From: Nostocales cyanobacterium
Lineage (GTDB): Bacteria > Cyanobacteriota > Cyanobacteriia > Cyanobacteriales > Nostocaceae
Reading direction: 5' to 3'
Length of the DNA: 57,649 nt
Assembly: GCA_004292695.1 (NCBI GenBank)
Contig: RDXV01000010.1
Coordinates: forward strand, 1 to 57,649
The translations under genes were made by a program, and so were the position numbers. The notes under the pieces were generated by a model. That model saw only the letters and a list, made by a program, of their open reading frames with translations. It was not told the origin of the DNA and did not search any database. Each line of letters begins with the position of its first letter. Position 1 is the stretch's first letter. Below, piece by piece: positions 25,368 through 56,298 of the stretch.

Positions 25368-25421
25368 CCTGTAAATCCTAAAATCCTGGACATCCTGATT
25401 CAGACAAATACTGTATAATAC
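25368..25421 (+). promoter_or_regulatory. ~55-bp repeat module CCTGTAAATCCTAAAATCCTGGACATCCTGATTCAGACA with TGTATAAT extended -10
   Basis: One of five copies (25368, 35664, 53389 inverted, 55611, 56242); here ~40 bp upstream of a Uma2 gene. Confidence 0.6.
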
Positions 25422-25458
25422 TAATTAACCAAAATTTCTATATTGGGAGTAAAAAAAT

Positions 25459-26043
25459 ATGCCCATCATGACAATTAAAGATGTGGAAAAACTCCAAACC
25501 GCTATCAATGAAGCTGGTTTAGATTATGATGTAGAATTAGAAAACGGAAATATTTCTATTATGGGTCCATCGGATATAGTTTCTAGTGAAATTGGTATTC
25601 TTTTTAGCCGACTATTAGCAAACTGGGTTTATCCCCGTCGTTTAGGAAGAGTTTTTGATTCTGCGGGTGGTTTTATTTTACCAGATAGCAATTTAACTGC
25701 TCCCGATGTTTCTTTTGTCCGTGCTGCAAGGTTGCGCCAAAGTCCCCGTTATTTTGGTGAACTTGTACCTGATTTAGTAGTAGAAATTAAATCTCAAAGT
25801 GATAGAATTAAAACCTTAGAAAAGAAAGTTATCAATTTTATTAATTTGGGTGCAGTGGTGGGAATTTTAATTGATCCTGATGAAGAAACTGTAACTGTTT
25901 ATCTTTCTCAAGGTGAACCTGTTGTTTTTCAAAACAATGATATTTTAACTTTACCTGAACTTTTACCTGGTTGGGAATTACCTATTTCTGAATTATGGCC
26001 TCCTGTTTTTACTGAAGAAGAAATACAAGATGCAGGACAATAG
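25459..26043 (+). CDS. Uma2-family putative endonuclease
   Basis: DVSFV...PDLVVEIKSQSD PD-(D/E)XK-like core. Confidence 0.7.
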   Translation: MPIMTIKDVEKLQTAINEAGLDYDVELENGNISIMGPSDIVSSEIGILFSRLLANWVYPRRLGRVFDSAGGFILPDSNLTAPDVSFVRAARLRQSPRYFGELVPDLVVEIKSQSDRIKTLEKKVINFINLGAVVGILIDPDEETVTVYLSQGEPVVFQNNDILTLPELLPGWELPISELWPPVFTEEEIQDAGQ

Positions 26044-26108
26044 AAGGATTCAGCTACAAGTAATCAGTTAATAAAAACAAGAATCAAGATTGATAACTAT
26101 ATTGTTTC

Positions 26109-26699
26109 TTATTCAAAAACTACACCTTCATAAAGTATGTCAATAGGAAATTCAAATTCAATACTAGAGAAAGTGATCATATCCCCTATTGTATAGGGAT
26201 AGTAAAGCCACATTCTTCCTTCTCCACGACAATATCTTTCAACATATATTTTTTCAGAATCAATTAAAATATATTCTTGTAAACTAGGAATTGTTAAATA
26301 ATATCTGAATTTTTCCTCTCTATCTCTATTACTTGTACTAGGAGAAAGCACTTCAACAATTAATTTAGGATATTGAATAAATTTCCGAGCTTTGATATCT
26401 TCAGGATGACAACTAACAATTAAGTCAGGGTAAAAATAAGGACTTTGAGGACTAACTTGAACTTTCACATCTGACACATTAACTCGACAACCTTGAGGAT
26501 GGAGATGAGAATATAAAGGTCTGTAAAGATTGAGCGCAATATCATTATGGGGAATTGTACCACCTGTCATGGCAAAAACTTCACCGTTGATATATTCATA
26601 ACGAATATCTTGGTTAAGTTCCCATACAAAATATTCCTCAATGGTCATTTTTTCTGGTTGTTGAGATATTGCTATCATATCAAACTCCAATTTTTTCAA
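26109..26699 (-). CDS. Uma2-family putative endonuclease
   Basis: MTIEEY...ELNQDIRYEYINGEV...YPDLIVSC...LIVEVLSPST. Confidence 0.7.
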   Translation of the reverse strand: MKKLEFDMIAISQQPEKMTIEEYFVWELNQDIRYEYINGEVFAMTGGTIPHNDIALNLYRPLYSHLHPQGCRVNVSDVKVQVSPQSPYFYPDLIVSCHPEDIKARKFIQYPKLIVEVLSPSTSNRDREEKFRYYLTIPSLQEYILIDSEKIYVERYCRGEGRMWLYYPYTIGDMITFSSIEFEFPIDILYEGVVFE

Positions 26700-26773
26700 G
26701 TTGGTTTTAATTATAGCAATAAAAAATAATAGATCCCCGAATTCTTTAATAACTTAGGGATCTTTATGTTTAA

Positions 26774-28369
26774 TTACTCTCGATTCATTCTAATCAAATC
26801 TGTTAAAATACTATCCAAACTCCCATTAACTTGAATCTTCTCAATCTTCTCCGCAATACGTTCTAAAACCTCCAATTCTTTTAATCTTAACGCCACAGGA
26901 TTATCTTCCATTACCTTAGCAGTATTTAACATACTCCTAGTAGCAGCAGTTTCTTCTCTGCGTCTGACAACATTTGCTTGAGCAGCTTTTTCTGCTTCTA
27001 CAACTTTACTCAAAATCTCCTTAATTTCCCCAGGTAAAATTATATCTTTTACCCCCACAGAATCAACTTCAATTCCATATTCAGACGCTTTTTGTCTAAT
27101 ATATTCTGAGATGCTTCTATCAATCGCTCCCTTATCTTCTAATAGTGCATCTAATGTTCTTTCTCCCACAGCACCGCGCAGAGCAAATTGCAATTCTTTG
27201 TACAAGAAACCTGTAATATCTGATAATCCATTTTTTGCTTTTAAGGGATCTTGAATGCGGAAACCAGCAGTTAAATTTAACCGCAAGGGTACTTTATCTT
27301 TAGATAAAATTTCTTGTCCAGAAACTTCCATATTTTGTAATCTTAAATCAATAGTTTCTGTCTTAAATGATCTGCCAAATATCCACCAAGCATTTACCCC
27401 CGGTTGTAATTGGGTTTGAAATTCTTGATTAATATATAATAATCCAATGTGTTGAGATGGAACTTGACAAATATGTACACAACTACGAATCAAGTTTTTT
27501 ACTTCTGTTGTTCCTTCCACCAATTCAGCAATTAATCGGGGTGATAATTTAGCATCTGTGCTAATATCAATTATTTCTACTTCTACACCTTGCAAAAATA
27601 ATTTTCTGCTTGTAGGTGGTAAAATTGCAATCACTTTTTTACGATATCTGACAACTGCTACCTGAAAATCTAAAAGTTCCACATTTTCACAATAAGCAGC
27701 AACAAATTCAGGATGTTTTTCAATTAAAATATCCTCTAAGGGAAAATCAGGATTAGGTAAAATGCGGCTAATTGTACGTACAGAAACATCTCTATCTATT
27801 GCCCAAAAAGCATATTCACCTTTTTCTAAAGGTTTTACAAAATTGTTCTGTAAATACAACAAACCAATCTCATATTCAGAAATTTGAAATTTTTTAATTC
27901 CATATAAACTAATTCCCCGCAATTGTTGGACAAATATATCGGGTAATTGCAAGGTTTCATCTAAGTTTAAAAAATGAGATTCTACCTCGATAAAACCTCG
28001 CCAAAATGCCCGCAATTGATTAGATCCAATACTTAACCAAGTTTGTCCCCAATGTACTAACGCTGTTTGATTAAATCCGGTTCTAATAATTAATAAATGT
28101 TCTTGAATTTCATTAGCGTGGGATGAACGCAATAATAATTCTAAGTTGTCAATTTCCGCTTCTGGTTCATTGAGATTATATATTCTTACGTTCCAATAAC
28201 GACCAAAATAAGTATATTCACCGGGTGATAATATTTTCTTAAAATCACTGCGGTGATATAAAATGCCAATTTCGTTAGGTTTGATGTAAAAATTTTTCCA
28301 CATAATACTTTGAATCAGTAATTTTATGGGTTGATACCACGAAAGCAATAGGTTTTTTGCACTTTTCAT
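26774..28369 (-). CDS. SPFH/band-7 domain protein with three tandem SPFH-like modules
   Basis: Three repeats each opening with E-IG(I/L)LY...PGE...W, and a C-terminal coiled-coil typical of stomatin/flotillin-like proteins. Confidence 0.55.
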   Translation of the reverse strand: MKSAKNLLLSWYQPIKLLIQSIMWKNFYIKPNEIGILYHRSDFKKILSPGEYTYFGRYWNVRIYNLNEPEAEIDNLELLLRSSHANEIQEHLLIIRTGFNQTALVHWGQTWLSIGSNQLRAFWRGFIEVESHFLNLDETLQLPDIFVQQLRGISLYGIKKFQISEYEIGLLYLQNNFVKPLEKGEYAFWAIDRDVSVRTISRILPNPDFPLEDILIEKHPEFVAAYCENVELLDFQVAVVRYRKKVIAILPPTSRKLFLQGVEVEIIDISTDAKLSPRLIAELVEGTTEVKNLIRSCVHICQVPSQHIGLLYINQEFQTQLQPGVNAWWIFGRSFKTETIDLRLQNMEVSGQEILSKDKVPLRLNLTAGFRIQDPLKAKNGLSDITGFLYKELQFALRGAVGERTLDALLEDKGAIDRSISEYIRQKASEYGIEVDSVGVKDIILPGEIKEILSKVVEAEKAAQANVVRRREETAATRSMLNTAKVMEDNPVALRLKELEVLERIAEKIEKIQVNGSLDSILTDLIRMNRE

Positions 28370-28689
28370 GATCTAAGTGACTTGTAATATTGCATATTAC
28401 AACTATAATAGAAAATTTTTTAAAACTCTGCAAGTGTATATTTTCACAGTGAATAGGTGGACAAAAGCTACTCAAAAACTGGATGAAGATAGTTATTTTC
28501 ACTGAAATACTTGGTAGTAATTCGGATCAAGATAACTAGCAGATATAGCGTTCATTTTGCTACTATTTGAAGGATATACTCAAGTTAGAGAGAAAGGCAG
28601 TTATGCAGACTTATTAACTGTTGCTATTAAACTTCACTCTAGCGAGTTAGGAATAATAGCGAAAAATATACACCACAGAGTTAGTGATA

Positions 28690-28770
28690 ATGCGGAGTCG
28701 AACCGCAGGATTTCTCCTTTACCATTTGCTACCTTAAAAGGGTAGTGTCCTTTAACCTGGACGAGGGCTG
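28690..28770 (-). pseudogene. degenerate tRNA-like remnant (UUU anticodon-arm-like, acceptor stem unpaired)
   Basis: Reverse complement shows a GTCC/GGAC D-stem, a CTACC-CTTTTAA-GGTAG anticodon arm and a GCGG-TTCGACT-CCGC T-arm, but no acceptor pairing. Confidence 0.35.
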
Positions 28771-28771
28771 G

Positions 28772-28861
28772 TTGAAAGTGTAGGATTTGAACCTACAAGC
28801 AGGATGTGAACCTGCAATTTGATCTTGAGTCAAACGCCTCTACCAATTGGGCTAACTTCCG
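28772..28861 (-). tRNA. tRNA-Leu(CAA)-like class II tRNA
   Basis: Manual fold of the reverse complement: acceptor CGGAAGT/ACTTTCA (6 of 7 pairs), 3-bp D-stem with a long D-loop, anticodon arm TTTGA-CTCAAGA-TCAAA (anticodon CAA), long variable hairpin GCAGG-TTCACAT-CCTGC, and T-arm GTAGG-TTCAAAT-CCTAC. Confidence 0.5.
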
Positions 28862-28863
28862 GG

Positions 28864-28935
28864 TTTTTGATACAGGATTTGAACCTGTTCACATTGATTG
28901 AGAGTCAACTGCTCTACCAATTGAGCTAATCAAAA
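28864..28935 (-). tRNA. tRNA-Glu(CUC)-like (atypical all-A/U acceptor stem)
   Basis: The reverse complement folds as a 72-nt cloverleaf: TTTTGAT TA GCTC AATTGGTA GAGC A GTTGA CTCTCAA TCAAT GTGA ACAGG TTCAAAT CCTGT ATCAAAA A. Confidence 0.45.
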
Positions 28936-29102
28936 GATAGCATAATCGGCGGTATACGCTAATACTACTGTATGGCGCACCAGTTAGGTATACAGAACCT
29001 AAGCTATAGCCCATTGTGCTGTAATAATTGTAGCATATTTACAAATGTAAAGGTAAGTGGAGTTAATTTATTTACTGTTTTATGGTGATACTACTATTGC
29101 TC

Positions 29103-29636: not shown

Positions 29637-29716
29637 GGATATCCATGTTTCAATTCAATGTTTTAATTTGGAGTTAAATTTTGGGGTTTGATAATTGAAA
29701 AACTAAATTTTCTTGG

Positions 29717-31584: not shown

Positions 31585-31600
31585 TTTATTTTCTTTGCCT

Positions 31601-35495: not shown

Positions 35496-35663
35496 GTTCG
35501 TGTCAGCAATATTTTAATGATTATTTAGTGACTAAATTATAACATCTCAAAAATTATCCCTTAACAAAAATAAAATTACTTTATAAACTAAAGCTGCTAG
35601 TTATCTACTCCTAGCTGGTAATGGGTAATTACTGATAGATAGTAATGAAATTCCGGTTTTCAT

Positions 35664-35710
35664 CCTGTAAATCCTTAAATCCTGGACATCCTGATTCAGA
35701 CAGTTTCCCT
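35664..35710 (+). repeat. copy of the ~55-bp CCTGTAAATCCT(T/A)AAATCCTGGACATCCTGATTCAGACA module
   Basis: Sequence identity with the copies at 25368, 55611 and 56242. Confidence 0.6.
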
Positions 35711-35801
35711 AAATAGCAACTTACTGTATATATAAATATCTGTCTCCCAAAACCTATTTATCAGGTTGGGTTTCACCTAAATCCACCCAACCCACAGATA
35801 A

Positions 35802-36785
35802 TTAATTATCTCCTTGACTTGATGCTAACAACTGCTCAAAATCCTCCAACGAAGCAATAGTAATTGCCTGTTTAAAGATACTTTTTAGCAATTGCAAATC
35901 CTCCAGAGAATTAATCTGATTCTTCAACTCATCTGATACATTGCCAAATCTTGTTTCTAGAATTTCAATCACATTTTCACGGGAATTTTTGATCATCCCA
36001 TCAATTTCAAAGCTAGTTAAAAATGGCATACGTTTTCCCTCCTCATAACGGTTTAATTCAGTCTTGAAATCAGATTGCAGTATTGGGGGTAATGTCATCA
36101 TCCATTCAATAAACCGGAATAATTGACGAATCATTTCTCCGGTATAACCCAAGTCATAAAGTCGTTTCACTAGACTTAATTTTAACTGAAATCTTTGTTG
36201 TGAATTACCTTGAGTGGCTTGGGTTTGCAAATGTGCCATAATGATGATAGCAAAAGGATTATTACTTTGTGCTAGGGTATCATGGCTATAATCTAATAGT
36301 TTAACACTGGGAAATTGTAAATTAGTTGTAAACCCCCACTGACTATAACCATAAGATGCTGGTTTCCAATTGGGGTTATCATCTCCTAAAACCGCGAAAC
36401 TAAAAACTTTAAGACGATAGCGATCAAATAAACGATGATTATAAATATACATCCTTTCTGCAAAATCGTCTTGTTCTTGTCCTTGTATTTCTATGTGAAT
36501 CAGAACTAACGCTTTTTCTCCATTTCGCAGGGTGACTTTTACCAGTTTATCCGCTAAACGTCTTCCTGTTTCTGCATCTCTAATTAGTTCTTGTAATTCG
36601 GTGTCTAGGGTTTCATATCCTTTTTCCCAGTCAATATCTTGATAAACTTCAGGAAAACAGTATTCTATGAATTGTTCAAGATAAACTGTAATCGCTTCTT
36701 TCCATGCGCTGTCATAATCTGAGTTTGGTTGGTAGTTCATCCCTGGAAATATATGTTTTGATGTCTTGTAATTATAACATATCAA
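35802..36785 (-). CDS. Rpn/YhgA-like PD-(D/E)XK nuclease family transposase
   Basis: AWKEAI...LVLIHIEIQGQ...YIYNHRLF core plus a C-terminal DUF4351-like tail; related to ORF 52169..52969. Confidence 0.6.
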   Translation of the reverse strand: MICYNYKTSKHIFPGMNYQPNSDYDSAWKEAITVYLEQFIEYCFPEVYQDIDWEKGYETLDTELQELIRDAETGRRLADKLVKVTLRNGEKALVLIHIEIQGQEQDDFAERMYIYNHRLFDRYRLKVFSFAVLGDDNPNWKPASYGYSQWGFTTNLQFPSVKLLDYSHDTLAQSNNPFAIIIMAHLQTQATQGNSQQRFQLKLSLVKRLYDLGYTGEMIRQLFRFIEWMMTLPPILQSDFKTELNRYEEGKRMPFLTSFEIDGMIKNSRENVIEILETRFGNVSDELKNQINSLEDLQLLKSIFKQAITIASLEDFEQLLASSQGDN

Positions 36786-36788: not shown

Positions 36789-38090
36789 CTAAAAACTACC
36801 TTTATAAACCATTTCCATTTTTAACTTTTCTAACTCCATCTTCAACCTTTCATTCTCCAATTTTAAAACCAAATTCTCATCTTTAATCACCTCAACCTCA
36901 TTCCGTTTACTCAAAGCCTGATTTATTGCCAACTTCCGCATATCCAAAGAAAACCAACGTTGATAAGTTTTCGTGTGAATCTGTACACTATGACCTAAAT
37001 TATCTGCTGCTGCTTTAATCGGAATCCCTAAAATGTGCGCTCTAATTGCCCAACCATGACGCAAATCATAGGGTTTAAAATCTAAGCCAATTTTTCTAAA
37101 CCACCAGCTAACTCTTTGAATTAAAGCTGTAATTTCTGCATGATTATTTTTATCTTTTTTATTAATTGCTTCTACCAACATTTCTAAATACTGGGGATTT
37201 CTTAAATCAAATTCCTCAATCCATTCTTTATATAAAGGTAATGCTTCCCTTTCTCCCGTTTTACAATCTTTATCAACCTTCCATGTTAAATCTAAATTTT
37301 CCTTACTTAACCACCAATTAACATCAGGATTGATAAATAATTCACGGGGACGTAAACCGAAAACTGCTAACATTCCATACACCCAACGCCACAGTAACCA
37401 GCTATCTTTTACCTCATAATTAACTTGTTTACCTCGATTATTTTCGTATTCCTCAAATTTATAAAAACCTGCTACTATTTCTTTATCTGTAGGAACATTT
37501 CTAGAGTTAGTTTCCGGTGTTTTAGCATAGTTAGTTAAGTTAATTTCAATCTTGAAAAGTTGACAAAATACAGAAATAGCTCTTACAGCATTATATCTTG
37601 CCCATTCTTTATCTATTTTCTCGATTGCATGAATAAAATTGTCCCCAATTGCTAAATCATCAGCTTTGGTATAACGTTTAATTCTGGTATAATAATAAAA
37701 GAAAGTATGCTCACTTTTTGTTGTGCGTTTATGGGTTTTAAAATATTCAATTTCAAACTTTTCTAATAATTTCCCAATAGTTGCTACATCGTTTTTTATC
37801 TCTTCCTTCCCTAAATATTTCTCATTCCAAACAAAGGTTTTCCTAGCAATTAATTTTCCTAATTCATAAGCTTCTTCCTCTGCGGTTTTTAAACCCTCCA
37901 AATTAGCAGGAATGTTTAAACTGATGTTGTATTGTTTTTTACCTAATTTTTTTATATCTGCATCACCCGGTTTAATAGGTAAAGTTGCCCTTAATTGCAG
38001 ACATCCATTTGATTCTCGAATTGTTACCCTCGTCTTTGCAGACTTCAAACGCAGATTTACCTGTTGTATTTGTGTTAAGTTAGTTTTCAT
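36789..38090 (-). CDS. xisA: XisA-family site-specific tyrosine recombinase (nifD element)
   Basis: 433 aa; shares LQLRATLPIKPGD...YNISLNIPAN...TAEEEAYELGKLIARK and a C-terminal RHGWAIRAHILGIPIKAAADNLGHSVQIHTKTYQRWF with the other two XisA-like ORFs. Confidence 0.85.
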   Translation of the reverse strand: MKTNLTQIQQVNLRLKSAKTRVTIRESNGCLQLRATLPIKPGDADIKKLGKKQYNISLNIPANLEGLKTAEEEAYELGKLIARKTFVWNEKYLGKEEIKNDVATIGKLLEKFEIEYFKTHKRTTKSEHTFFYYYTRIKRYTKADDLAIGDNFIHAIEKIDKEWARYNAVRAISVFCQLFKIEINLTNYAKTPETNSRNVPTDKEIVAGFYKFEEYENNRGKQVNYEVKDSWLLWRWVYGMLAVFGLRPRELFINPDVNWWLSKENLDLTWKVDKDCKTGEREALPLYKEWIEEFDLRNPQYLEMLVEAINKKDKNNHAEITALIQRVSWWFRKIGLDFKPYDLRHGWAIRAHILGIPIKAAADNLGHSVQIHTKTYQRWFSLDMRKLAINQALSKRNEVEVIKDENLVLKLENERLKMELEKLKMEMVYKGSF

Positions 38091-38905: not shown

Positions 38906-39029
38906 TTTGGGTTGTTTATTTTATATAAATTATCTCCTCTTATGGTGCGGGCATCTTAGCAGCCAAATGTATGTGTCCATCACCACAATCAATCAACAAT
39001 ATATCCTGTAAATCCTCAAATCACAGTTA

Positions 39030-39060
39030 GATCCCCGACTTCTTAAAGAAGTCGGGGATC
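39030..39060. repeat. perfect 31-bp palindrome GATCCCCGACTTC-TTAAA-GAAGTCGGGGATC
   Basis: Same 13-bp arms as the mini-elements at 9288 and 51203; lies 30 bp inside the right border of the nifD element. Confidence 0.85.
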
Positions 39061-39453: not shown

Positions 39454-39933
39454 ATGCCTCAGAATCCAGAAAATATTAAAGACCACGTTGAGCTATTCCG
39501 CCAACCAGAATACCAACAACTATTCCAAAACAAGAAAGAATTTGAAAACGCTCACACTACTGAAGAAGTAGAAAGAGTAGCAGAATGGACAAAGTCCTGG
39601 GAATATCGTGAAAAGAACTTCGCTCGTGAAGCTCTCACCGTTAACCCCGCTAAAGGTTGTCAGCCTTTAGGTGCTATGCTTGCGGCTGTTGGTTTTGAAG
39701 GCACTCTTCCCTTCGTGCAAGGTTCTCAAGGTTGCGTTGCTTACTTCCGTACACACTTAACCCGTCACTTCAAAGAACCATTCTCCGGTGTTTCTTCTTC
39801 CATGACAGAAGACGCTGCTGTGTTTGGTGGTCTGCAAAACATGATTGATGGTTTGGCTAACTCCTACACTCTCTACAAGCCAAAAATGATCGCTGTTTGC
39901 ACCACCTGTATGGCGGAAGTTATCGGTGATGAC
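39454..39933 (+). CDS. nifK: nitrogenase MoFe protein beta NifK, 5' segment (codons 1-160), interrupted
   Basis: [15 protein letters not shown]...[12 protein letters not shown], then the divergent tail HLNLLEYL and a stop at 39960. Confidence 0.9.
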
Positions 39934-40163
39934 CACTTGAATTTGCTTGAATATTTGTAGCTCTAATATTTTAATTTTTCAGTGAATTAGTTTGATTAAT
40001 TTTTGCTTCTATTTCAGGTACAATATCCAGTTTTATCAAGCTATAAACTCTAAAATATTTGATTATTTTTTTATTAAATGAGTGAAAGAAACTTATGCTT
40101 GAAAAATAAAAGAGAGATTTTTAAATATATCCCTGAAATTCAGTATTGAATATAGCAAAAACT

Positions 40164-40205
40164 AAATTAATAAATTAATAAATTAATAAATTAATAAATT
40201 AATTT
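40164..40205. repeat. tandem 8-mer (TAAATTAA)x5
   Basis: Immediately 3' of the recombinase stop inside the nifK element. Confidence 0.8.
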
Positions 40206-41740: not shown

Positions 41741-42796
41741 TTAGGTGCATTCATTACCAACGCTAAAAACGCTGGTTCTGTTCCTAAAGATTTACCAGTT
41801 CCCTTCGCTCATACTCCTAGCTTCGTAGGTTCTCACATCACCGGTTACGACAACATGATGAAGGGAATTCTTTCTACCTTAACAGCAGGTAAAAAGAAAT
41901 CCTCCAGCAATGGCAAAATCAACTTCATGCCTGGTTTTGATACCTACTCAGAAAACACCCGCGAATTAAAGCGGATTGCTTCTTTAATGGGTATTGACTA
42001 CACAGTTCTTTCTGACACCAGTGACTATGTTGACTCACCTAACGATGGTGAATTCAATATGTATCCCGGTGGTACTAAGTTAGAAGATGCAGCAGATTCC
42101 ATCAACGCTAAAGCTACCGTTGCTCTGCAATCTTACTCCTTGACCAAAACTTGCGAATACATCGCTAAGGAATGGAACCAAGACGTTTGTGTTTCTCGTC
42201 CTTGGGGTATCAAAGGAACTGACGAATTCTTAATGAAAGTCAGCGAATTGACTGGTAAAGCAATTCCTGAAGAATTAGAAATCGAACGTGGTCGTGCAGT
42301 TGACGCAATGACCGACTCCCACGCTTGGGTACATGGTAAGCGCTTCGCTATCTACGGTGATCCTGACCTAGTTTACAGTGTAGTTAGCTTCATGTTGGAA
42401 TTAGGCGCTGAACCTGTACACATTTTGGTTCACAACACCAACAAAGAATTTGAAAAAGAATTGCAAACTCTCTTAGATTCTAGCGAATTTGGTAAAGACG
42501 CTAAAATCTGGGGTGGTAAGGACTTGTGGCACTTACGTTCCTTGTTATTCACCGAACCCGTAGACTTATTAATCGGTAACTCCTACGGTAAGTACCTGTG
42601 GCGTGATTGTGGTGTACCCTTAGTAAGAATCGGTTATCCCATCATGGACCGTCACCACTACCACCGCTATGCAACCATCGGTTACAAAGGTGTAATCAAC
42701 TTGTTGAACTGGGTTGTTAACACAATCTTTGAAGAAATTGACCGCAACACCAACGTTGCTGGTAAGACCGATATTTCTTACGACTTAGTACGCTAA
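41741..42796 (+). CDS. nifK: NifK 3' segment (codons 161-511)
   Basis: LGAFITNAKNAGSVPKDLPVPFAHTPSFVGSHITGYDNMMKGIL...; in frame with 39454..39933 after element removal. Confidence 0.9.
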   Translation, partial: LGAFITNAKNAGSVPKDLPVPFAHTPSFVGSHITGYDNMMKGILSTLTAGKKKSSSNGKINFMPGFDTYSENTRELKRIASLMGIDYTVLSDTSDYVDSPNDGEFNMYPGGTKLEDAADSINAKATVALQSYSLTKTCEYIAKEWNQDVCVSRPWGIKGTDEFLMKVSELTGKAIPEELEIERGRAVDAMTDSHAWVHGKRFAIYGDPDLVYSVVSFMLELGAEPVHILVHNTNKEFEKELQTLLDSSEFGKDAKIWGGKDLWHLRSLLFTEPVDLLIGNSYGKYLWRDCGVPLVRIGYPIMDRHHYHRYATIGYKGVINLLNWVVNTIFEEIDRNTNVAGKTDISYDLVR

Positions 42797-46599: not shown

Positions 46600-46725
46600 A
46601 AATTCATTCCCATACAGAGTATGGGAACGAGAAACGAAAAATACAGAGTATGGGAACGAGAAAAAATAAATAAATTAACTCTTTCCTGTTCCCTGTTCCC
46701 TATTCCCTATTCCCTATTCCCTTTT
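46600..46725. repeat. 21-bp direct repeat (ACAGAGTATGGGAACGAGAAA x2) followed by (TTCCCTR)n heptamers
   Basis: Tandem repeats in the nifN-nifX intergenic region. Confidence 0.8.
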
Positions 46726-46743
46726 TTTATTGACAAAGGAAGA

Positions 46744-47163
46744 ATGAAAGTGAAAATTGCATTTACGACTACTGATAGAATTCATATTAACGCTCACTTT
46801 GGCTGGGCTAAGGAAATTGATGTTTATGAAATTTCCGATCAAGGATATGAATTTATCGAAACTTTAACCTTTGAAGGTGATCTCAAAGAAGATGGTAATG
46901 AAGATAAAATTACCCCTAAATTGGATGCCTTAAAAGATTGTACAATAGTTTATGTAGTGGCTATTGGTGGAAGTGCGGCCGCTCGTTTAATTAAACATGG
47001 CGTGACACCAGTCAAGGCGAAATCAGAAGAAGAAAAGATTGAAGAAATCTTGACTAAATTAGTGCAAACCTTAAAAGGGAATCCTCCACCTTGGTTGCGT
47101 AAAGCTTTAGGTCAAAAGAAATCTAACTTTTTAGAGGAATTAGAAGACGAAGCAGCGGTATGA
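46744..47163 (+). CDS. nifX: NifX
   Basis: MKVKIAFTTTDRIHINAHFGWAKEIDVYEIS dinitrogenase FeMo-co-binding fold. The ORF-track start at 46621 runs through the repeats; the real start is the ATG at 46744. Confidence 0.8.
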   Translation: MKVKIAFTTTDRIHINAHFGWAKEIDVYEISDQGYEFIETLTFEGDLKEDGNEDKITPKLDALKDCTIVYVVAIGGSAAARLIKHGVTPVKAKSEEEKIEEILTKLVQTLKGNPPPWLRKALGQKKSNFLEELEDEAAV

Positions 47164-47640: not shown

Positions 47641-47762
47641 AGGTAATTGGTGATTGGTGATTGGTGACTGGGGACTGGGAAGAATAAACTTTTGCCTCTT
47701 GCCTTTTGCCTCTTGCCTTTTACCTATTCCCTATTCCCTATTCCCTATTCCCTATTCCCTAT
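47641..47762. repeat. STRR heptamers (GGTGATT)n, (TTGCCTC/TTGCCTT)n, (TATTCCC)n
   Basis: Tandem heptamers. Confidence 0.8.
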
Positions 47763-47767
47763 TTCCA

Positions 47768-47968
47768 ATGACCATTGACGAACTGAAAACCACAATTAAA
47801 AAGCTAAATAGTAAAGCAGGTCAAATGAAAATGGATCTGCATGATTTAGCGGAAGGATTACCTACAGATTACGAAAAACTAATGGATGTTGCGGCTGAGA
47901 CATACGAAATATATTGTCAGCTAAATGAACTCAAGCAACAACTTAAACAAATGGAGAAAAATCAATGA
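47768..47968 (+). CDS. small nif-cluster protein (DUF683-like, coiled-coil)
   Basis: 66 aa MTIDELKTTIKKLN...; the conserved small ORF between DUF269 and nifW; the real start is the ATG at 47768. Confidence 0.55.
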   Translation: MTIDELKTTIKKLNSKAGQMKMDLHDLAEGLPTDYEKLMDVAAETYEIYCQLNELKQQLKQMEKNQ

Positions 47969-48282: not shown

Positions 48283-48292
48283 GAGGTATAAA

Positions 48293-51181: not shown

Positions 51182-51202
51182 CTAAAAGTGACAGGTGATA
51201 AG

Positions 51203-51265
51203 ATCCCCGACTTCTGACATCAATTTATCATTTATGAACACAATAAATCAAAGAAGTCGGGGATA
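51203..51265. repeat. palindromic mini-element GATCCCCGACTTC-(37 nt)-GAAGTCGGGGAT
   Basis: Third copy of the family; lies between the MsrQ-like and MsrP-like genes. Confidence 0.8.
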
Positions 51266-51366
51266 TGGGTATGAAAGAGTGCGATGCCTGAATACTTACA
51301 ATCATAAAGACTATCTTCTCTCTGCGTCTCTGCGGTTCATATCAAAAAGTAAAACCAAAAATCACA

Positions 51367-52095
51367 ATGAAAAAACATTTAATTCACATCCCTAAACCCC
51401 AAATAACTCGCCGTAAACTATTACAAATTACCGGAATTTCCAGCATAGGAACTTTACTCAGTAGTTGCGGAACACCAGCATTAGAAGACTTAGTAGGTAA
51501 ACTTTCTGAACCAGTCAACCAAAAAGTAGAACAACTAATATTTCAACCCCAAAAACTCGTACCCGAATTTTCCATTAACGACATTCAACCCAAAGAATTA
51601 ATAGTTAACAGTTTCCGGGGTACACCAATAATTGATGTTGATAAATTCCGGTTAATTATAGATGGAGAAGTCAACAACCCCCTGAGTTTAAGCATGGCAG
51701 AAATTCAAAATTTACCCCTAACTTCCATGATAATTCGTCATGTTTGCGTAGAAGGTTGGGCGGCAATTGTGCAATGGGGAGGGATACGTTTACGAGATTT
51801 AATTGCCTTATCCCAACCAAAAAATAATGTTAAATATGTCTATTTTCAATCAGCAGATGGTTATTATGAAAGTTGGGATTTACCATCAGTAACCCATCCT
51901 CAAACATTATTAGCTTATCAAAAAAATGGTGAACAATTACCCATTGAAAATGGCGCACCCTTACGTTTAGCTTCACCAATTAAATTAGGTTATAAACAAA
52001 GTAAATGGGTAACAAGAGTGACTTTAACTAGCCAATTATCCAATTTTAAAGGTTATTGGGAAGATCAAGGTTATGAATGGTTTGCAGGGTTGTAG
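51367..52095 (+). CDS. MsrP/YedY-like molybdopterin-dependent oxidoreductase (sulfite-oxidase fold)
   Basis: Twin-arginine-like RRKLLQITGISS signal and a Moco-binding domain (GWAAIVQWGGIRLRDL...NGAPLRL). Confidence 0.65.
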   Translation: MKKHLIHIPKPQITRRKLLQITGISSIGTLLSSCGTPALEDLVGKLSEPVNQKVEQLIFQPQKLVPEFSINDIQPKELIVNSFRGTPIIDVDKFRLIIDGEVNNPLSLSMAEIQNLPLTSMIIRHVCVEGWAAIVQWGGIRLRDLIALSQPKNNVKYVYFQSADGYYESWDLPSVTHPQTLLAYQKNGEQLPIENGAPLRLASPIKLGYKQSKWVTRVTLTSQLSNFKGYWEDQGYEWFAGL

Positions 52096-52168
52096 AACAA
52101 ATTAAGTTGAGAAAAATTATTAGGTGTAAAAGATAATCCTTTACACCCTGTAAGTAAAAATTTAAGAT

Positions 52169-52969
52169 TTAAGATTTTTGAATTTCTTGTTGTAAAGTTT
52201 GCACTTCTTCAACAGATAATTCTGTGACTTCAGCAATTTGTTCTAAACTCATTACTCCCATTCTTAACAAGTTTAAAGCTAACTTTCTGGTTGTTTCCGC
52301 TTTACCTTCGGCCTTACCTTCGGCTCTACCTTTGGCTTCACCTTCTTCTAGGATTTCTTGATAAATGACTGATTCGCGCATAATCTCACTCCTGAATATT
52401 TTCCTAATTACATCTTTGTTTAACACTAGACCGGCTAAAACGCTACTAGCAGCAGCTATATTTCTTTGTAACCTTTGTTCTGTGATTCCTTCTACTGCTT
52501 TTGCTACTTGGGTTAATACCATTGTAGGATCATTTGTCTGAGTCAGCGCCGCGAAGGGTAATAAACCGGGAACTGTCAAAAATTGTTCTGTAGGTTGTTC
52601 CCATAAGCGGATAACTTCAAATTGATGGTAAGTGTTTTCTAATTTGAAGTTGTTTTCATAGACTAATTCTGACCCTGTTTTTCGCAAATAGATGACTATT
52701 TGACGCATTTTTTTATGAGGAAACCGACGATATCCCCTAACTCGATAATCTAACGTCCGAAAAGGCATATCTTTATCTGTGTCGGTTTGAAATTCGATAT
52801 GTAGAACTAATTCATCTGATTGTAATAAGATTAATGAATCAGCGCGAATTGGTTCGTTTGATAATTCTGTGGGGCTAAGTTCTGTTAATTTAACTGGTGA
52901 ACCTAGTAACCATGTAGCTAAGTCGTCTTTGAAGTTTTCGGCTAAGAATTTGCAGATGTTGTCATACAT
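52169..52969 (-). CDS. Rpn-family recombination-promoting nuclease/putative transposase
   Basis: PD-(D/E)XK core (DSLILLQSDELVLHIEFQ) plus a C-terminal DUF4351-like tail with a (GKAE)n repeat. Confidence 0.6.
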   Translation of the reverse strand: MYDNICKFLAENFKDDLATWLLGSPVKLTELSPTELSNEPIRADSLILLQSDELVLHIEFQTDTDKDMPFRTLDYRVRGYRRFPHKKMRQIVIYLRKTGSELVYENNFKLENTYHQFEVIRLWEQPTEQFLTVPGLLPFAALTQTNDPTMVLTQVAKAVEGITEQRLQRNIAAASSVLAGLVLNKDVIRKIFRSEIMRESVIYQEILEEGEAKGRAEGKAEGKAETTRKLALNLLRMGVMSLEQIAEVTELSVEEVQTLQQEIQKS

Positions 52970-53109
52970 GAGAATTTTAAACCCATTTGATCAGCGATAT
53001 TTTTCTTATTTATTTTTCAACTTAATTCTATGTCATTTTGAATAGGTATCACTAATAATTATCACAATCTGCCTAACTCCCGTAAATTTTTTAAATCGAG
53101 TTCAAAATC

Positions 53110-53310
53110 TTATATTTCATAAGAATAAAGAGGTATTTGACGTTCTTTAAGTAACTGACAAAAATGTATTTTATCCATTTGTGCTAACTTACTAGCTTGT
53201 CCTATTGCTAGTTTTCCCGACTGAAATAATAACAGGGCAATTTCTTGTTTAAACTGGGTTTCGTTCATCCCACAAGCATTTAAAGTTTCATCTGATATGG
53301 TAACGCTCAT
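53110..53310 (-). CDS. UPF0175-family antitoxin-like protein (orphan)
   Basis: 66 aa, similar to ORFs 5358..5603 and 19115..19390. Confidence 0.5.
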   Translation of the reverse strand: MSVTISDETLNACGMNETQFKQEIALLLFQSGKLAIGQASKLAQMDKIHFCQLLKERQIPLYSYEI

Positions 53311-53388
53311 AGTAGATATGATTGATTTTGGTTGTTAATCTTATGACAATTATAGCTTATCTATTAAACTACGTTGTCATTTAACTTA

Positions 53389-53428
53389 TTGTCAGAATCA
53401 GGATATCCAGGATTTTAGGATTTTCAGG
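53389..53428 (-). repeat. inverted copy of the ~55-bp CCTG(A/T)AAATCCTAAAATCCTGGA(C/T)ATCCTGATTC module
   Basis: Reverse complement matches the module; ~80 bp upstream of the minus-strand UPF0175 gene. Confidence 0.55.
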
Positions 53429-53582
53429 ATGTTTTTTTGAGTTGCATTTTGAGGATTTAAGGATTCAATACTTTTCGGTTAGGCTTAAAATACTGCAATG
53501 TGATCTAAATTGGTAATTTTTGCTGCTTGATAGGGAATAATAGAATAAATACTTTTTGTCAGATAAAGAGGAATTTTGACAA

Positions 53583-55547
53583 ATGGACTGGATAACTATT
53601 CTCAAAGCACAACAGACTGATTTTATAGCCAGAATTAAATCAGGTGACTTACTCCATTGTGAGAAGGAAGGCCAGCATAGTGAGTTGACGGTTATCTCTG
53701 GAGAGAGGTTAAAGCAATTACGGGATTTTTGCTGGGAGATGGCTAATAAATTTAAGCAACAATACGACGTTAAGAACATCTTCTTCAATAATATGAAGGG
53801 AAAGCTGGGTGAGGAAGTTGTTAAAATTCGTTTAGGTGATTTTGTCACTGAAGTTGATTATGAAAAATACAGTGGTGGAGATGGGAAAATTGATTTTACT
53901 TTAACTTCTGATCCATCAATTGGTATTCAGGTGAAAACCCGTTATGGAAATTGTGATCAAGTTCAATGGACAATTGATAAAGAAGAAATTGAAAAAAATG
54001 CTGCTTTAATTTTTATTTTATGTCAAGAAGAATTTAGTGACACGGAAAAAGAATATGGTCTTATTATAGCTGGATTTTTACCAACCAATATGATTAAAAT
54101 TGCTGGTAGTAAAACTTTAGTGGGAATAGATGAATTATTTTATATTGGTGGGTTACGTGGCTATTTAGAAAATTTCAAATCTTTCACATCTTATGATTCT
54201 GATAAATATATCATATTAGGTGATGAATGTGTTAATAATAAAGATTATCAAGGTGCTATTTTCGATTATTATCACGCCTTATATTTAATATCAAATGAAG
54301 CCAGTAATTATTATGTAAGTGATGCAACTATGGCAATTATTTATTACAAAATAGGTAACGCTCGTTATACTTTAGGAGATTATAAGGGTGCGATTGATGA
54401 TTACATCCAAGCTATTAACTTAAATCCTGCATCTGATAATGCTTACAACAAGCGAGGAAATGCTTATTACATATTAGAACAATATTATGATGCGATTAAT
54501 GATTACACCAAAGCTATTAACTTAAATCCTACATCTGATAATGCTTACAATAATCGAGGAAATACTTATTACCAATTAGAACGATATTATGATGCGATTG
54601 ATGATTACACCCAAGCTATTAACTTAAATCCTGCATCTAATAGTGTTTACGACAATCGAGGAAATGCTTATTACAAATTAGGACAAGATTATGATGCAAT
54701 TGATGATTACACTTTTATTTTAGGAAATAAGCAAGTCGCAATAGATGATTTAAACAAAGCAGCCTCTATTTACAAACAAGAAAATAATTTTCATGATTAC
54801 CATAAAACTTTTGAACAGCTTCAAAAAATTCAGTATGATGATGTTAAGCTAATATCACCATCAGGAATGGATTATAGAAAGCTGCGTGATTTACTCAAAA
54901 CTGGGAAATGGACGGAAGCAGATGAAGAAACCAGACGGCTAATGTTAGCAGTTGCAAAACAGGAGGAAGAAAGTTGGTTAGATCATGATAGTATTGATAA
55001 ATTTCCCTATGAAGACCTCTGCACTATTGACTATCTATGGGTGAAATACAGTAATGGTAAATTTGGGTTTTCTGTACAGAAAATTATTTATCAAGGTTTA
55101 GCTAAAACATATGATAGCAAAATGTGGGATCAGTTTATTCATAAAATAGGCAGATATCTTTATGAGATTAATGCATCAAATGATATTAAGGCACCGCTAG
55201 GATACTTCCCAGGCAATGCAGGGGGAATTTGGTTGGATTGGGGAGAGGATGCTGATTACGAATTTGTGAAGGGTTGGTTTGATGACTATCTATTCCGTCG
55301 GGTTGATATTTGTAAAATGTATAATATCAAATCCGAAAAAATATATGAGCCATTAACAAAGCAAAACACACAAGTTAGTGGTGATTATGAAGATAATTAT
55401 CTAGCAGAGGATTTAAACAATAATGATAACCATGATGATTATTTTGACGATTATATTTCTGATTATGATGATTATTTTGACAGTTATAATGATTATGACT
55501 ATGATATCAAGCAATTCTCACAGAACACCAAACAATATCTCCTTTAG
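53583..55547 (+). CDS. multidomain protein: N-terminal unknown domain, TPR repeats, GUN4-like domain, acidic D/Y-rich tail
   Basis: Four TPR units (AIDDYTQAINLNPASDNAYNNRGNAYY), then a GUN4-like segment (WTEADEETRRLML...DLCTIDYLWVKYSNGKFGFSVQ), then a (DDY)n tail. Confidence 0.65.
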   Translation: MDWITILKAQQTDFIARIKSGDLLHCEKEGQHSELTVISGERLKQLRDFCWEMANKFKQQYDVKNIFFNNMKGKLGEEVVKIRLGDFVTEVDYEKYSGGDGKIDFTLTSDPSIGIQVKTRYGNCDQVQWTIDKEEIEKNAALIFILCQEEFSDTEKEYGLIIAGFLPTNMIKIAGSKTLVGIDELFYIGGLRGYLENFKSFTSYDSDKYIILGDECVNNKDYQGAIFDYYHALYLISNEASNYYVSDATMAIIYYKIGNARYTLGDYKGAIDDYIQAINLNPASDNAYNKRGNAYYILEQYYDAINDYTKAINLNPTSDNAYNNRGNTYYQLERYYDAIDDYTQAINLNPASNSVYDNRGNAYYKLGQDYDAIDDYTFILGNKQVAIDDLNKAASIYKQENNFHDYHKTFEQLQKIQYDDVKLISPSGMDYRKLRDLLKTGKWTEADEETRRLMLAVAKQEEESWLDHDSIDKFPYEDLCTIDYLWVKYSNGKFGFSVQKIIYQGLAKTYDSKMWDQFIHKIGRYLYEINASNDIKAPLGYFPGNAGGIWLDWGEDADYEFVKGWFDDYLFRRVDICKMYNIKSEKIYEPLTKQNTQVSGDYEDNYLAEDLNNNDNHDDYFDDYISDYDDYFDSYNDYDYDIKQFSQNTKQYLL

Positions 55548-55610
55548 ATTTTCCTGATTTATAAATTGTAGTAGCTGAAATGCTACCAATTGTCTAAGTA
55601 AGGCAAAACT

Positions 55611-55670
55611 CCTGTAAATCCTAAAATCCTGGACATACTGATTCAGACAAAAAATATCATATAATAGAGG
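55611..55670 (+). promoter_or_regulatory. ~55-bp repeat module with CATATAAT -10 box
   Basis: Copy of the module; ~25 bp upstream of a truncated Uma2 ORF. Confidence 0.55.
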
Positions 55671-55693
55671 ATAAATATTGACCTCAATTAACT

Positions 55694-55801
55694 ATGCAAA
55701 CCACAGAATCACCATTACAATTGCGACTGTGGACTGTTGACGAATACCACAGAATGGCTGAAGCAGGAATATTTGAACCAAGTGAACGAGTAGCGGGGTG
55801 A
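55694..55801 (+). pseudogene. truncated Uma2-family endonuclease (N-terminal 35 codons only)
   Basis: MQTTESPLQLRLWTVDEYHRMAEAGIFEPSERV then a stop, where intact members continue with ELIxGEI. Confidence 0.55.
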
Positions 55802-55908
55802 TCAAAAGATAATTGATCCAAGAGTTGCTAAATTAATAAGAGTAAATTAAATGAATTTATAAGTTTGTTTTAGATTATGATAAAAATATCAACAGCGATT
55901 CCTAACAA

Positions 55909-56175
55909 ATGACTACGATTATGAACACCGAATTAGTCAAAAAATTAGTAGAGATTATTCATTGTTTATCCCCAGAAGAAAAACAATTATTAGAGACAGA
56001 ATTGCACATCAAACCAGATTGGAATATTATCAAACAAAGCATCCTCAAAAGAGGAGAAATACTGAACCAAAGACTAAACAATCAATCTTTACAAGATATA
56101 GTTACCAATATTATCTCAGAAATGAGAGAAGAAAGAAGTGAACAGTTAATTAATTCTTTGAACCACCATGAATAA
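55909..56175 (+). CDS. hypothetical protein
   Basis: 88-aa ORF. Confidence 0.35.
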   Translation: MTTIMNTELVKKLVEIIHCLSPEEKQLLETELHIKPDWNIIKQSILKRGEILNQRLNNQSLQDIVTNIISEMREERSEQLINSLNHHE

Positions 56176-56241
56176 TTTAATCTGTGTAGATGCCAGCTTT
56201 ACCATTAACTGTTTCTTTATTTCTATTATCTCATAAAAAAT

Positions 56242-56298
56242 CCTGTAAATCCTAAAATCCTGGACATCCTGATTCAGACAAAAAATATCATATAAAAG
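56242..56298 (+). promoter_or_regulatory. ~55-bp repeat module immediately upstream of pyrF/pyrE
   Basis: Copy of the module, ending ~25 bp before the ATG at 56324. Confidence 0.5.

Follow-up and report, generated by a model that had tools for sequence, protein, structure and literature searches.

A short DNA module recurs five times in a 57,649-nt stretch of a Nostocales cyanobacterial genome (the window, below), upstream of genes as different as Uma2 and pyrF/pyrE, and the question it raises is whether such a module is a promoter, part of a mobile unit, or something else. The initial annotation took it to be about 55 bp long with a –10 box, and proposed either a portable promoter cassette or the 5' end of a small Uma2-associated mobile unit. 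The present analysis indicates that the module is the end-piece of very abundant, small, hairpin-forming, junk-like repeats of bloom-forming Anabaena/Dolichospermum cyanobacteria, rather than a promoter cassette or an element specific to Uma2. It is probably the terminal arm, 41 nt long, of a non-coding foldback family of high copy number, MITE-like with the mosaic habit of BIME/REP or BOX elements, in Nostocales of the Anabaena/Dolichospermum/Aphanizomenon type.

The conserved unit and its copies in the window

A search with a 26-nt core, allowing up to three mismatches, found five sites in the window, at 25381, 35677, 55624 and 56255 on the plus strand and at 53390–53415 on the minus strand; none appeared in 100 shuffles, so that five copies are far above chance. 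The limits of the full copies were set by an nhmmer profile of the arm, and the five copies reported earlier were found by both searches. The unit consists of four ATCCTG hexamers, spaced by 8–9 nt, followed by the tip ATTCWGACA, and has the consensus ATCCTGTAAATCCTNAAATCCTGGAYATCCTGATTCWGACA. An alignment of 160 copies from about 40 genomes of relatives, in which positions 16–41 were fixed by the search pattern and positions 1–15 were free, showed conservation limited to positions –1 to +42; 14 of the 15 free positions hold 0.7–2.6 bits, and position 15 (N in the consensus) holds 0.2. The conserved unit is thus 41–43 nt long rather than about 55 bp. Within it the hexamers and tip are conserved and the spacers vary, the reverse strand reads as four (C/T)AGGAT (GGA motifs), and a 24-nt element was found inserted within some arms at CTGAT^TCAG. 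A single arm is unstructured (–0.6 kcal/mol, z +1.1).

Every copy in the window is a solo or truncated arm. The first (25366–25406, plus strand; E = 8.6e-16) is a full 41-nt arm with no partner within reach, situated within the nifD element, about 225 bp from its left border, and the Uma2 gene (PF05685) at 25459–26043 starts 52 nt after it. The second full 41-nt arm (35662–35702, plus strand) was found by nhmmer within a composite repeat at about 35592–35726, in which GGTAATN heptamers and the arm are both enclosed by an inverted repeat (AAGTTGCTAGTTA...TAACTAGCAACTT type); this type of composite recurs at eight other loci. It lies between two minus-strand genes. Both of these arms are located between the N-terminal part of nifD (ending at 25139) and an XisA-like integrase gene (36789–38090), in agreement with the earlier placement of two copies within the nifD element. 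The partial copy previously noticed at 39004–39023 proved to be a half arm at 39003–39022 on the plus strand (ATCCTGTAAATCCTCAAATC, model positions 1–20; E = 3.5e-4), truncated beside the palindrome GATCCCCGACTTCTTAAAGAAGTCGGGGATC.

A full solo arm on the minus strand (53390–53430; core search and nhmmer) has its tip 79 nt upstream of the UPF0175 gene at 53110–53310, and a weak 15-nt arm fragment, GAATCCTTAAATCCT, is found just inside it at 53452–53466 on the same strand (E = 0.04). An arm with two substitutions (ACTCCTG and CATACTG) occupies 55610–55649 on the plus strand (E = 5e-13), 44 nt upstream of a 35-codon Uma2 remnant (55694–55801) whose DNA is 91.5% identical to the first part of a complete Uma2 gene in the related locus L035. 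It is abutted by a probable decayed arm tip on the opposite strand at 55592–55607, recognized by eye and missed by the nhmmer profile (TTGTCTAAGTAAGGCA against TTGTCTGAATCAGGAT, 11 of 16 positions). Window positions 55506–55603 align to the 3' end of the same L035 gene, at which an inverted arm is present in L035; the 55592/55610 pair would probably be a collapsed foldback between two Uma2 remnants. The last copy, another full solo arm (56240–56280, plus strand; core search and nhmmer), is followed after 43 nt by the pyrF/pyrE fusion, which begins at 56324. All four gene neighbours named in the initial annotation therefore hold. The arms at 55610 and 56240 have 15 extra nt in common, AAAAATATCATATAA, and nothing more beyond the unit.

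Foldback architecture and variable islets

Relatives carry the unit as the terminal arm of foldback elements, TGTCWGAATCAGGAT...ATCCTGATTCWGACA, most pairs of which measure 93–530 bp. A complete element has two inverted arms, with their ATTCWGACA tips outward, and about 50–440 bp of variable sequence between them; adjacent inverted pairs have the tips outward in 47 cases and inward in 13. The elements are non-coding, their translations giving only spurious ORFs, and the full ones form long interrupted hairpins (z –5 to –10). The module therefore belongs to a longer MITE-like element in relatives, a finding that the initial annotation itself had named as decisive against its reading. Among 305 arms, 143 are in foldbacks, 62 occur only in tandem arrays, which have a period of about 81 bp, and 87 are solo; truncated, nested and tandemly amplified copies occur. 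The carriers comprise at least 115 stretches in a genome scan, nearly all of the Anabaena–Dolichospermum group. Boundaries are sharp, the copy number is high, the architecture is that of inverted pairs, and the arms are intergenic in either orientation.

The two arms of one element differ from each other as much as random pairs of arms (4.9 compared with 4.64 mismatches), and the interiors are heterogeneous, 11 of 50 being unique and 17 of 50 partly shared. Independent arms joined in a mosaic would account for such interiors better than would a MITE of the classic master-copy kind. A search for target-site duplications in 39 pairs, at k = 3–9 and four boundary offsets, found none of 3 bp or more; matching flanks were not in excess, and the flanks merely prolong the palindrome (WT|TGTC...GACA|AW). 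The roughly 1 Mb of arm-bearing DNA around the 305 arms has no transposase gene between arms or next to them, and the top Pfam families among 142 arm neighbours include none. Our best reading is that the arms are parts of a non-autonomous MITE/BIME-like repeat. The four hexamers, at their 8–9 bp spacing, and the invariant tip would then be a substrate for multi-site binding and cleavage, recognized by a transposase or recombinase acting in trans and encoded elsewhere; such an enzyme, together with recombination between copies, may have spread or reshuffled the arms, and any effects on the neighbouring Uma2, UPF0175 and pyrF genes would be incidental.

Arm ends coincide with synteny breakpoints and islet edges. 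A variable islet of 4.2 kb (52096–56280), which separates a molybdopterin oxidoreductase gene (51367–52095) from pyrF/pyrE, has the arm at 56240 as its right edge, and the homology of the window to loci L034 and L081 begins or ends exactly at the ends of the arm at 53390. The oxidoreductase and pyrF genes are only 45–110 bp apart in five of the 12 relatives in which the upstream region was read, whereas the window has 4.2 kb between them. Among 41 pyrF loci of other Nostocales there is no arm; the region upstream of pyrF is free of arms in the more distant relatives, including those with the ancestral oxidoreductase–pyrF order. The difference between the window and its relatives is the whole islet and not one element, and a clean pair of filled and empty sites for a single element was not present among the fetched loci. 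Short-read contigs carrying neighbouring window genes end inside arms, and orthologous arms have one conserved and one variable flank. We favour the view that variable gene islets, among them the insert upstream of pyrF, have their edges marked by arms.

The pairing of one conserved with one variable flank, like the absence of target duplication, also fits recombination sites similar to pdif or integron attC, at which a site-specific recombinase would swap small genes, such as those for toxin–antitoxin or Uma2 proteins, between arms. HigA-like, VapC and ParE-like genes are snugly enclosed by outward-tip pairs (L015, L101, L013 and L056), Uma2, Barstar and GUN4 genes by inward-tip pairs (L035, L061, L001 and L015), and the direct copies at 55610 and 56240 flank a 631-bp unit holding one 88-aa ORF. 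However, direct reading of the consensus reveals no dyad-symmetric core, whether of the attC form (R''-L''...L'-R' with RYYYAAC/GTTRRRY) or as Xer 11-6-11 half-sites, so that a single arm has neither the central spacer of tyrosine or serine recombinase sites nor R''/R' boxes; its sole symmetry is CTGATTCAG, which is lost in about half of the copies, those with TCTG. Moreover, recombinase genes do not recur beside the arms, the DNA between most paired arms is just short and non-coding, and variable regions of this kind commonly hold toxin–antitoxin and Uma2 genes. We consider this explanation unlikely.

Promoters and Uma2 genes

The –10 box assigned to the module lies in its variable flank. TATAAT-like sequences accompany three of the five window copies, at differing distances from the tip; in these three, TATAAT or TATAAA is found within 7–14 nt and a gene start follows. 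Good –10 hexamers also follow some copies elsewhere (e.g. L005, L035 and L045), and the ends of Correia elements and IS elements can create hybrid promoters. It is nevertheless very improbable that the downstream gene is driven by the arm, as a source of upstream promoter elements acting together with a –10 box close by. Nothing is conserved at a fixed offset beyond the tip in the 160 copies. The frequency of –10-like hexamers, 44% after the tip, 34% on the opposite strand and 39% inside the element, is that of the background. None of the five window copies has a –35/–10 pair with 16–18 nt spacing that uses the arm; by direct reading, TGGACA and CAGACA are 21–24 and 7–10 nt, respectively, from the –10-like boxes. 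Orientation is neutral, tips pointing toward gene starts in 80 cases and gene ends in 83 (27 and 40 for solo arms), and the tip of the arm at 35662 is directed at the 3' end of the gene at 35802–36785. The TATAAA preceding pyrF seems to be native upstream DNA; this region aligns by eye with the sequence upstream of pyrF in the arm-less relative L128.

As for the mobile unit proposed earlier, the idea that the module is the end of one was right in spirit, as the foldback arms of relatives indicate, but its association with Uma2 is weak. Uma2 is the commonest single neighbour (six of the 142 ORFs next to arms, in which 145 Pfam families are represented) and accounts for 3.1% of ORFs in arm-bearing loci compared with 0.5% in control pyrF loci (p = 0.029). 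Furthermore, two Uma2 genes have arms on both sides (L035 and L061), and the arm at 55610 is flanked by two Uma2 remnants. If the Uma2 PD-(D/E)XK nuclease acted on the arms, and arm and gene moved together, these features would be accounted for, yet the enrichment is equally explained by the accumulation of both in variable islets. About 96% of arm neighbours are other genes, and a facing arm within 150 bp was found for just four of 27 Uma2 genes, compared with 52 of 864 ORFs overall (p = 0.07). The nhmmer profile detected no 3' partner arm for the intact Uma2 gene of the window, and the five non-cyanobacterial loci described below contain no Uma2 gene. A Uma2-driven unit is thus, in our judgement, the least probable of the explanations considered.

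Arms in other phyla and comparison with known repeats

The sole surprising feature of the family is that nearly the same sequence makes intergenic hairpins in unrelated bacterial phyla. Near-identical arms, sharing the hexamer array and the tip, form compact hairpins in Dehalococcoidia (L096 and L106), Ignavibacteriota (L055), Saprospiraceae (L078) and Ferruginibacter (L041), in which flanks and loops are GC-rich host sequence; judging from the translations, the copy in L106 lies inside an operon, between pyruvate dehydrogenase genes. This likeness suggests constraint on the sequence itself. There is some chance, although a small one, that intergenic hairpin elements of this type form one class spanning several phyla (Cyanobacteriota, Chloroflexota/Dehalococcoidia, Ignavibacteriota and Bacteroidota) and kept in sequence by a putative widespread trans-acting protein, the Nostocales foldbacks being a lineage-specific burst. 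Candidates for such a protein would be a nucleic-acid-binding factor or a domesticated transposase or nuclease, which might conceivably belong to the Uma2 PD-(D/E)XK family.

An unlikely alternative, to which we give slightly less weight, is that the ATCCTG/CAGGAT hexamers are the targets of a DNA- or RNA-binding host protein that is widely conserved, copies being kept by selection and not by mobility. The hairpins of other phyla, the conservation of hexamers and tip amid variable spacers, the lack of covariation between the arms of a pair, and the GGA motifs of the reverse strand are all consistent with it. Against it, Rfam 15 gave no match to the arms: only two tRNAs in the window at the gathering threshold, and just one unrelated SAM riboswitch in six hairpin-bearing loci at E ≤ 1. 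In addition, no candidate protein is known, the arms have no favoured position or orientation relative to genes, copy number and location vary greatly between relatives, other Nostocales have no arm at pyrF, and the occurrence of truncated copies, nested copies and tandem amplification resembles the decay of selfish DNA.

For the non-autonomous foldback reading, the nearest relatives by host are MITEs of Anabaena. Anabaena sp. 90 is reported to have 147 'type II' MITEs of 77–541 bp with no matching IS (Wang et al. 2012, PMC3542288), and MITE insertions of 127–204 bp occur in mcy genes of bloom-forming Anabaena (Fewer et al. 2011). Compared by description, these MITEs and the arm family agree in host clade, size range, non-coding nature, terminal inverted repeats, mostly intergenic location and the breakage of short-read assemblies; as for an IS with matching ends, none was found in the roughly 1 Mb of DNA around the arms. 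However, the published groups have tight lengths, whereas the arm family is heterogeneous, and group 4 (pANA02 1432–1684), the sole group compared in sequence, lacks the arm motif and is unrelated. Plasmid pANA02 contains a solo arm at 10139–10181 that is absent from the published MITE list.

Like REP/BIME/REPIN and pneumococcal BOX repeats, the arms occur as singlets, hairpin-forming inverted doublets and tandem or mosaic clusters in short intergenic spacers, including those inside operons, and cause no target duplication. In contrast to REPs, which have a 5' GTAG and a short imperfect palindrome, a single arm is non-palindromic, starts with ATCCTG and is an array of direct hexamer repeats. 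No RAYT gene is flanked by arms; the sole RAYT in the loci (L071, 4207–4755; a weak Y1_Tnp match of E = 5.8e-4, below Pfam's cutoff, with HUH and Tyr motifs seen by eye) is flanked by its own GTAGGGTGCGTCAGA repeats.

Correia elements of Neisseria and ERIC elements are also abundant intergenic inverted repeats, the ends of which can adjoin gene starts. Such ends have been proposed to create promoters, and have been shown to do so for Correia, the closest precedent for the promoter-cassette idea. In Correia elements the ends are 26 bp long, a TA duplication is present and the interior is conserved, whereas the arms have no duplication, no conserved –10 or –35 box and no orientation bias. The small dispersed repeats (SDRs) of Nostoc punctiforme are, like the arms, very small, sharply bounded sequences of heterocystous cyanobacteria, nested in heptamer arrays and other repeats and with no known mobiliser. 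They are reportedly 21–27 nt long with a hairpin of their own, whereas the arm has 41 nt, is unstructured alone and is normally paired in foldbacks.

Extent and copies of the repeat arm

A search of the window with the 26-nt core AAATCCTGGACATCCTGATTCAGACA, allowing up to three mismatches and with shuffled sequences as the control, returned five sites against none expected from the shuffles, which bears out the five-copy repeat of the initial annotation. Site reading, a repeat finder (families D6 and D12; inverted pairs I3, I9 and I13) and a profile search all place full arms at 25366-25406, 35662-35702, 55610-55649 and 56240-56280 on the plus strand and at 53390-53430 on the minus strand. The partial copy proposed beside a palindrome is a half arm at 39003-39022. 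All copies in the window were solo or truncated in the profile search, and by eye a decayed opposite-strand tip adjoins the 55610 copy.

The neighbouring genes are those described initially: an Uma2 gene (PF05685; 25459-26043), a 35-codon Uma2 remnant at 55694, which matches the beginning of a complete Uma2 gene in L035 at 91.5% DNA identity (L numbers denote loci fetched from other genomes for comparison), a UPF0175 gene (53110-53310) and a pyrF/pyrE fusion starting at 56324. Within 20866-42796, nifH (C-terminal part 23191-23607; integrase 21614-23035), nifD (N-terminal part 23745-25139; integrase 36789-38090) and nifK (39454-39960 and 41855-42796; integrase 40199-41587) are each interrupted by an element with an XisA-like integrase gene, and the three integrases are encoded by paralogues with ~70% identity (repeat families D1, D2, D7 and D8). 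As had been stated, two arms do lie within the nifD element, with the N-terminal part of nifD on one side and the element's integrase gene on the other. The palindrome beside the half arm, GATCCCCGACTTCTTAAAGAAGTCGGGGATC, is perfect and occupies 39030-39060; related AGAAGTCGGGGAT sequences lie just inside the arms in L019 and L095, and the more diverged AGAAGTTGGGTAT inside those of L033 and L044.

When the five window copies were aligned with their flanks, identity was confined to about 41-43 nt, shorter than the ~55 bp first assigned to the module; the copies at 55610 and 56240 have just 15 further bases in common. The arm consensus, ATCCTGTAAATCCTNAAATCCTGGAYATCCTGATTCWGACA, consists of four ATCCTG hexamers at 9, 8 and 9 nt spacing followed by the tip ATTCWGACA. 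The (TG)TATAAT sequence formerly included lies outside this unit, at a distance that differs from copy to copy, and is missing from two copies. A degenerate 26-mer, scanned against species-representative genomes, gave at least 115 stretches, nearly all of those listed being from Dolichospermum, Anabaena, Aphanizomenon, Sphaerospermopsis, Cuspidothrix, Cronbergia and Trichormus, and the listed stretches hold at least about 170 exact-pattern copies. The information profile of 160 copies is flat up to -2, high from -1 to +42 except at the variable consensus positions 15, 26 and 37, and flat beyond. The search pattern dictated arm positions 16-41; of positions 1-15, which were free, 14 are strongly conserved. 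Downstream of the tip, no position is conserved at any offset in the 160 copies, and therefore the module carries no -10 box. In the plasmid collection the arm is confined to three Anabaena/Dolichospermum plasmids, and among viral contigs it occurs in five stretches on three contigs.

Foldback architecture and the promoter and Uma2 readings

With a looser match, the listed stretches contain 236 copies, whose inverted neighbours point their tips outward (TGTCWGAATCAGGAT ... ATCCTGATTCWGACA) in 47 cases and inward in 13. Most outward pairs span 93-530 bp, and the elements that they delimit are predicted to fold into long interrupted hairpins (z-scores -5 to -10), in which the hexamers and 15-17 bp of tip are paired and the spacers form internal loops; folding of a single arm predicted no structure. 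Direct neighbours cluster at 79-87 bp spacing, forming tandem arrays whose repeats each comprise an arm and some 40 nt of G-poor sequence. Among 305 arms in the listed stretches, 143 belong to foldbacks, 62 to tandem arrays only and 87 are solo. The module thus belongs to a foldback repeat family, as its terminal arm. The initial annotation took membership of a longer known IS or MITE as grounds for refuting its reading; the module is indeed part of a longer element, though of a family not verifiably a known one. A systematic asymmetry between two arm types, A and B, was rejected (AA 18, AB 6, BA 1), as was a structured RNA or ribozyme, since Rfam gave no match and the two arms of an element showed no additional complementarity.

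The module had also been read as a portable promoter cassette. By crude ORF calls, tips in the listed loci face a gene start in 80 cases and a gene end in 83 (27 and 40 for solo arms), and the tip of the window arm at 35662 is directed into a gene 3' end. For 44% of arms, the 40 nt next to the tip include a -10-like hexamer; the corresponding values are 34% for the opposite strand and 39% for the element interior. A consensus scan of the five window arms found no -35/-10 pair at 16-18 nt spacing that uses the arm; the best -35-like hexamers within it, TGGACA and CAGACA, lie 21-24 and 7-10 nt, respectively, from -10-like boxes. By eye, the TATAAA that precedes pyrF can be aligned with the region upstream of pyrF in L128, which has no arm, and so appears to be native pyrF flank. 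With -10 boxes at background frequency, no properly spaced pair and neutral gene orientation, the promoter-cassette reading is not supported by the sequence.

Nor did an Uma2-associated unit emerge. A census of Pfam families in the 142 ORFs lying no more than 150 bp from an arm counted 145 families; Uma2 ranks first, yet has just 6 members, ahead of UPF0175 (4) and then GUN4, DUF5615 and PIN (3 each). A facing arm lies within 150 bp of 4 of 27 Uma2 genes, compared with 52 of all 864 ORFs (p=0.07), and a profile search of the window found no 3' partner arm for its intact Uma2 gene. Uma2 genes make up 3.1% of ORFs in arm-bearing loci versus 1 of 203 in 41 control pyrF loci (p=0.029). Thus, arms and Uma2 or toxin-antitoxin genes share variable neighbourhoods, and there is no specific arm-Uma2 unit. 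For annotation of the window, the module is best masked as the arm of a dispersed repeat, and it should not serve to predict promoters or an Uma2 regulon.

Variable islets, mobility and nested repeats

At the pyrF loci of other Nostocales (64-83% protein identity), the arm was found in none of 41. Five of the 12 pyrF upstream regions read (L129, L131, L134, L135 and L137) have a molybdopterin oxidoreductase gene 45-110 bp upstream of pyrF. In the window, that gene (51367-52095) and pyrF/pyrE are parted by a 4.2-kb islet (52096-56280), the right end of which is exactly the arm at 56240. The islet contains three arms, a 266-aa ORF with no Pfam match, UPF0175, a GUN4-TPR ORF, Uma2 remnants and an 88-aa ORF. 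The GUN4-TPR ORF (654 aa; 53583-55547) includes three 102-bp tandem copies (54353-54712; 83-85% identical) corresponding to its TPR repeats, and its last ~14 codons overlap 55506-55603, a segment homologous to the 3' end of the L035 Uma2 gene. A circle junction at 55506-55793 was considered and rejected, two adjacent Uma2 genes split by a collapsed foldback being the better explanation.

Homology to L034 and L081 begins or stops at the ends of the arm at 53390. Exact-protein look-ups showed that short-read contigs carrying the window's neighbouring genes stop inside arms, as is expected of a high-copy repeat. No target-site duplication was seen at the foldbacks tested, no transposase is among the top 25 families of the 142-ORF census, and none was found associated with arms in the arm-bearing loci. 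The two arms of one element resemble each other no more than do arms paired at random, internal sequences are heterogeneous, and the fetched loci include no filled/empty pair for a single element, just one chimeric contig. Overall, the interpretation in the initial annotation is partly supported: the module does form one end of a repeat of mobile type, and it is not a promoter cassette or an Uma2-specific element; of the small Uma2-associated mobile unit first proposed, the terminal position holds and the Uma2 specificity does not. Arms are useful markers of variable islets and rearrangement breakpoints, as in the nifD element interior and at the 4.2-kb insertion that precedes pyrF, and account for fragmented short-read assemblies of bloom-forming cyanobacteria.

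Several other repeats accompany the arms. A 24-nt element (ATGGCTAACGCCACGCTTCGCTAT and variants) lies inside arms in L017 (~4990, minus strand), L102 (~4500), L006, L012, L098 and L111, inserted exactly within a CTGAT^TCAG mini-palindrome near the tip, so that the arm is itself the target of another very small repeat. A composite repeat, at 35592-35726 in the window and in L003, L027, L031, L048, L051, L093, L094 and L109, consists of an inverted repeat AAGTTGCTAGTTA...TAACTAGCAACTT around GGTAATN heptamer runs, AAATCCCAGTTTTC and one arm; no copy was found without the arm. Heptamer repeats are typical of heterocystous cyanobacteria, and the window has 7-bp tandem runs (TTCCCTA/TAGGGAA, GGTAATT, CTCCTGA and AATTCTT), some pairing as long-range inverted repeats, with long runs at 56-115, 13288-13422, 14622-14765, 15700-15807, 46675-46756 and 47689-47808.

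Other phyla and known repeat families

Among the matches listed, five arm stretches are non-cyanobacterial, in assemblies of 47-63% GC: two from Dehalococcoidia (L096, and L106 on a 4.7-Mb chromosome), one from Ignavibacteriota (L055, on a 1.3-Mb contig), one on a Saprospiraceae contig (L078) and a solo arm on a Ferruginibacter contig (L041). Four of the five have an inverted partner arm 11-51 nt away, giving a hairpin of 93-133 bp. These hairpins sit in short intergenic spacers and have host-like, GC-rich loops and flanks; in L106 they stand on either side of pyruvate dehydrogenase genes (read from translations), and in L055 the hexamers are mostly ATTCTG/CAGAAT in both arms. Neither an Uma2 gene nor a transposase was found near the five arms. 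An Acidobacteriota MAG contig (L095; first 8 kb of CAWIWS010000023.1) was discounted because its arm flank is Dolichospermum-like: the arm surroundings are AT-rich and about 75% identical to Dolichospermum L019 in a locus of 62% GC overall, and the assembly is probably chimeric, with a cyanobacterial fragment at the join. The cross-phylum conservation is the sole feature left unexplained if the repeat is purely selfish and restricted to one lineage. The more interesting reading, based on these hairpins, has a low probability; the conservation, should it hold in a full census, would point to an unrecognised enzyme-repeat partnership comparable to RAYT-REPIN.

A RAYT as the mobiliser and membership of a diversity-generating retroelement were both rejected. 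In L071, a RAYT-like gene (4207-4755, within 4040-4860; weak, sub-threshold Y1_Tnp match, E=5.8e-4) lies within a 3.4-kb arm pair yet is flanked on both sides by its own inverted GTAGGGTGCGTCAGA REP doublets, an arrangement that resembles a separate Dolichospermum REPIN-RAYT system. In L121 (Anabaena sp. 90 plasmid pANA02, 8639-11681), a solo arm fills the 84-bp spacer between avd and the reverse transcriptase gene of a diversity-generating retroelement with an FGE-type target gene; the arm is no part of this retroelement, whose template and variable repeats lie elsewhere (L121 259-383 and 2411-2535). FGE-sulfatase-type proteins also occur between arm pairs in L015 and L064.

Anabaena sp. 90 is reported to have 147 "type II" MITEs that fall into 11 groups, measure 77-541 bp and have no matching IS (PMC3542288), and mcy genes of Baltic Anabaena are inactivated by MITEs of 127-204 bp (Fewer et al. 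2011, cited in PMC3184786). Host and size range agree with the arm family, and the published lists are without sequences. Of the Anabaena sp. 90 MITEs, for which the supplement gives coordinates only, the sole group inspectable, group 4, is unrelated; a literature search by sequence strings returned nothing relevant. We therefore file the arm family as new, or not verifiably described, within an ordinary class of repeats. Unlike a textbook MITE, it showed no target-site duplication and no associated transposase in the loci searched, and unlike REP/BIME or BOX elements, its single arm is not a palindrome; in habit (singlets, inverted doublets, tandem clusters and nesting), REP/BIME or BOX elements are closer to it than the textbook MITE.
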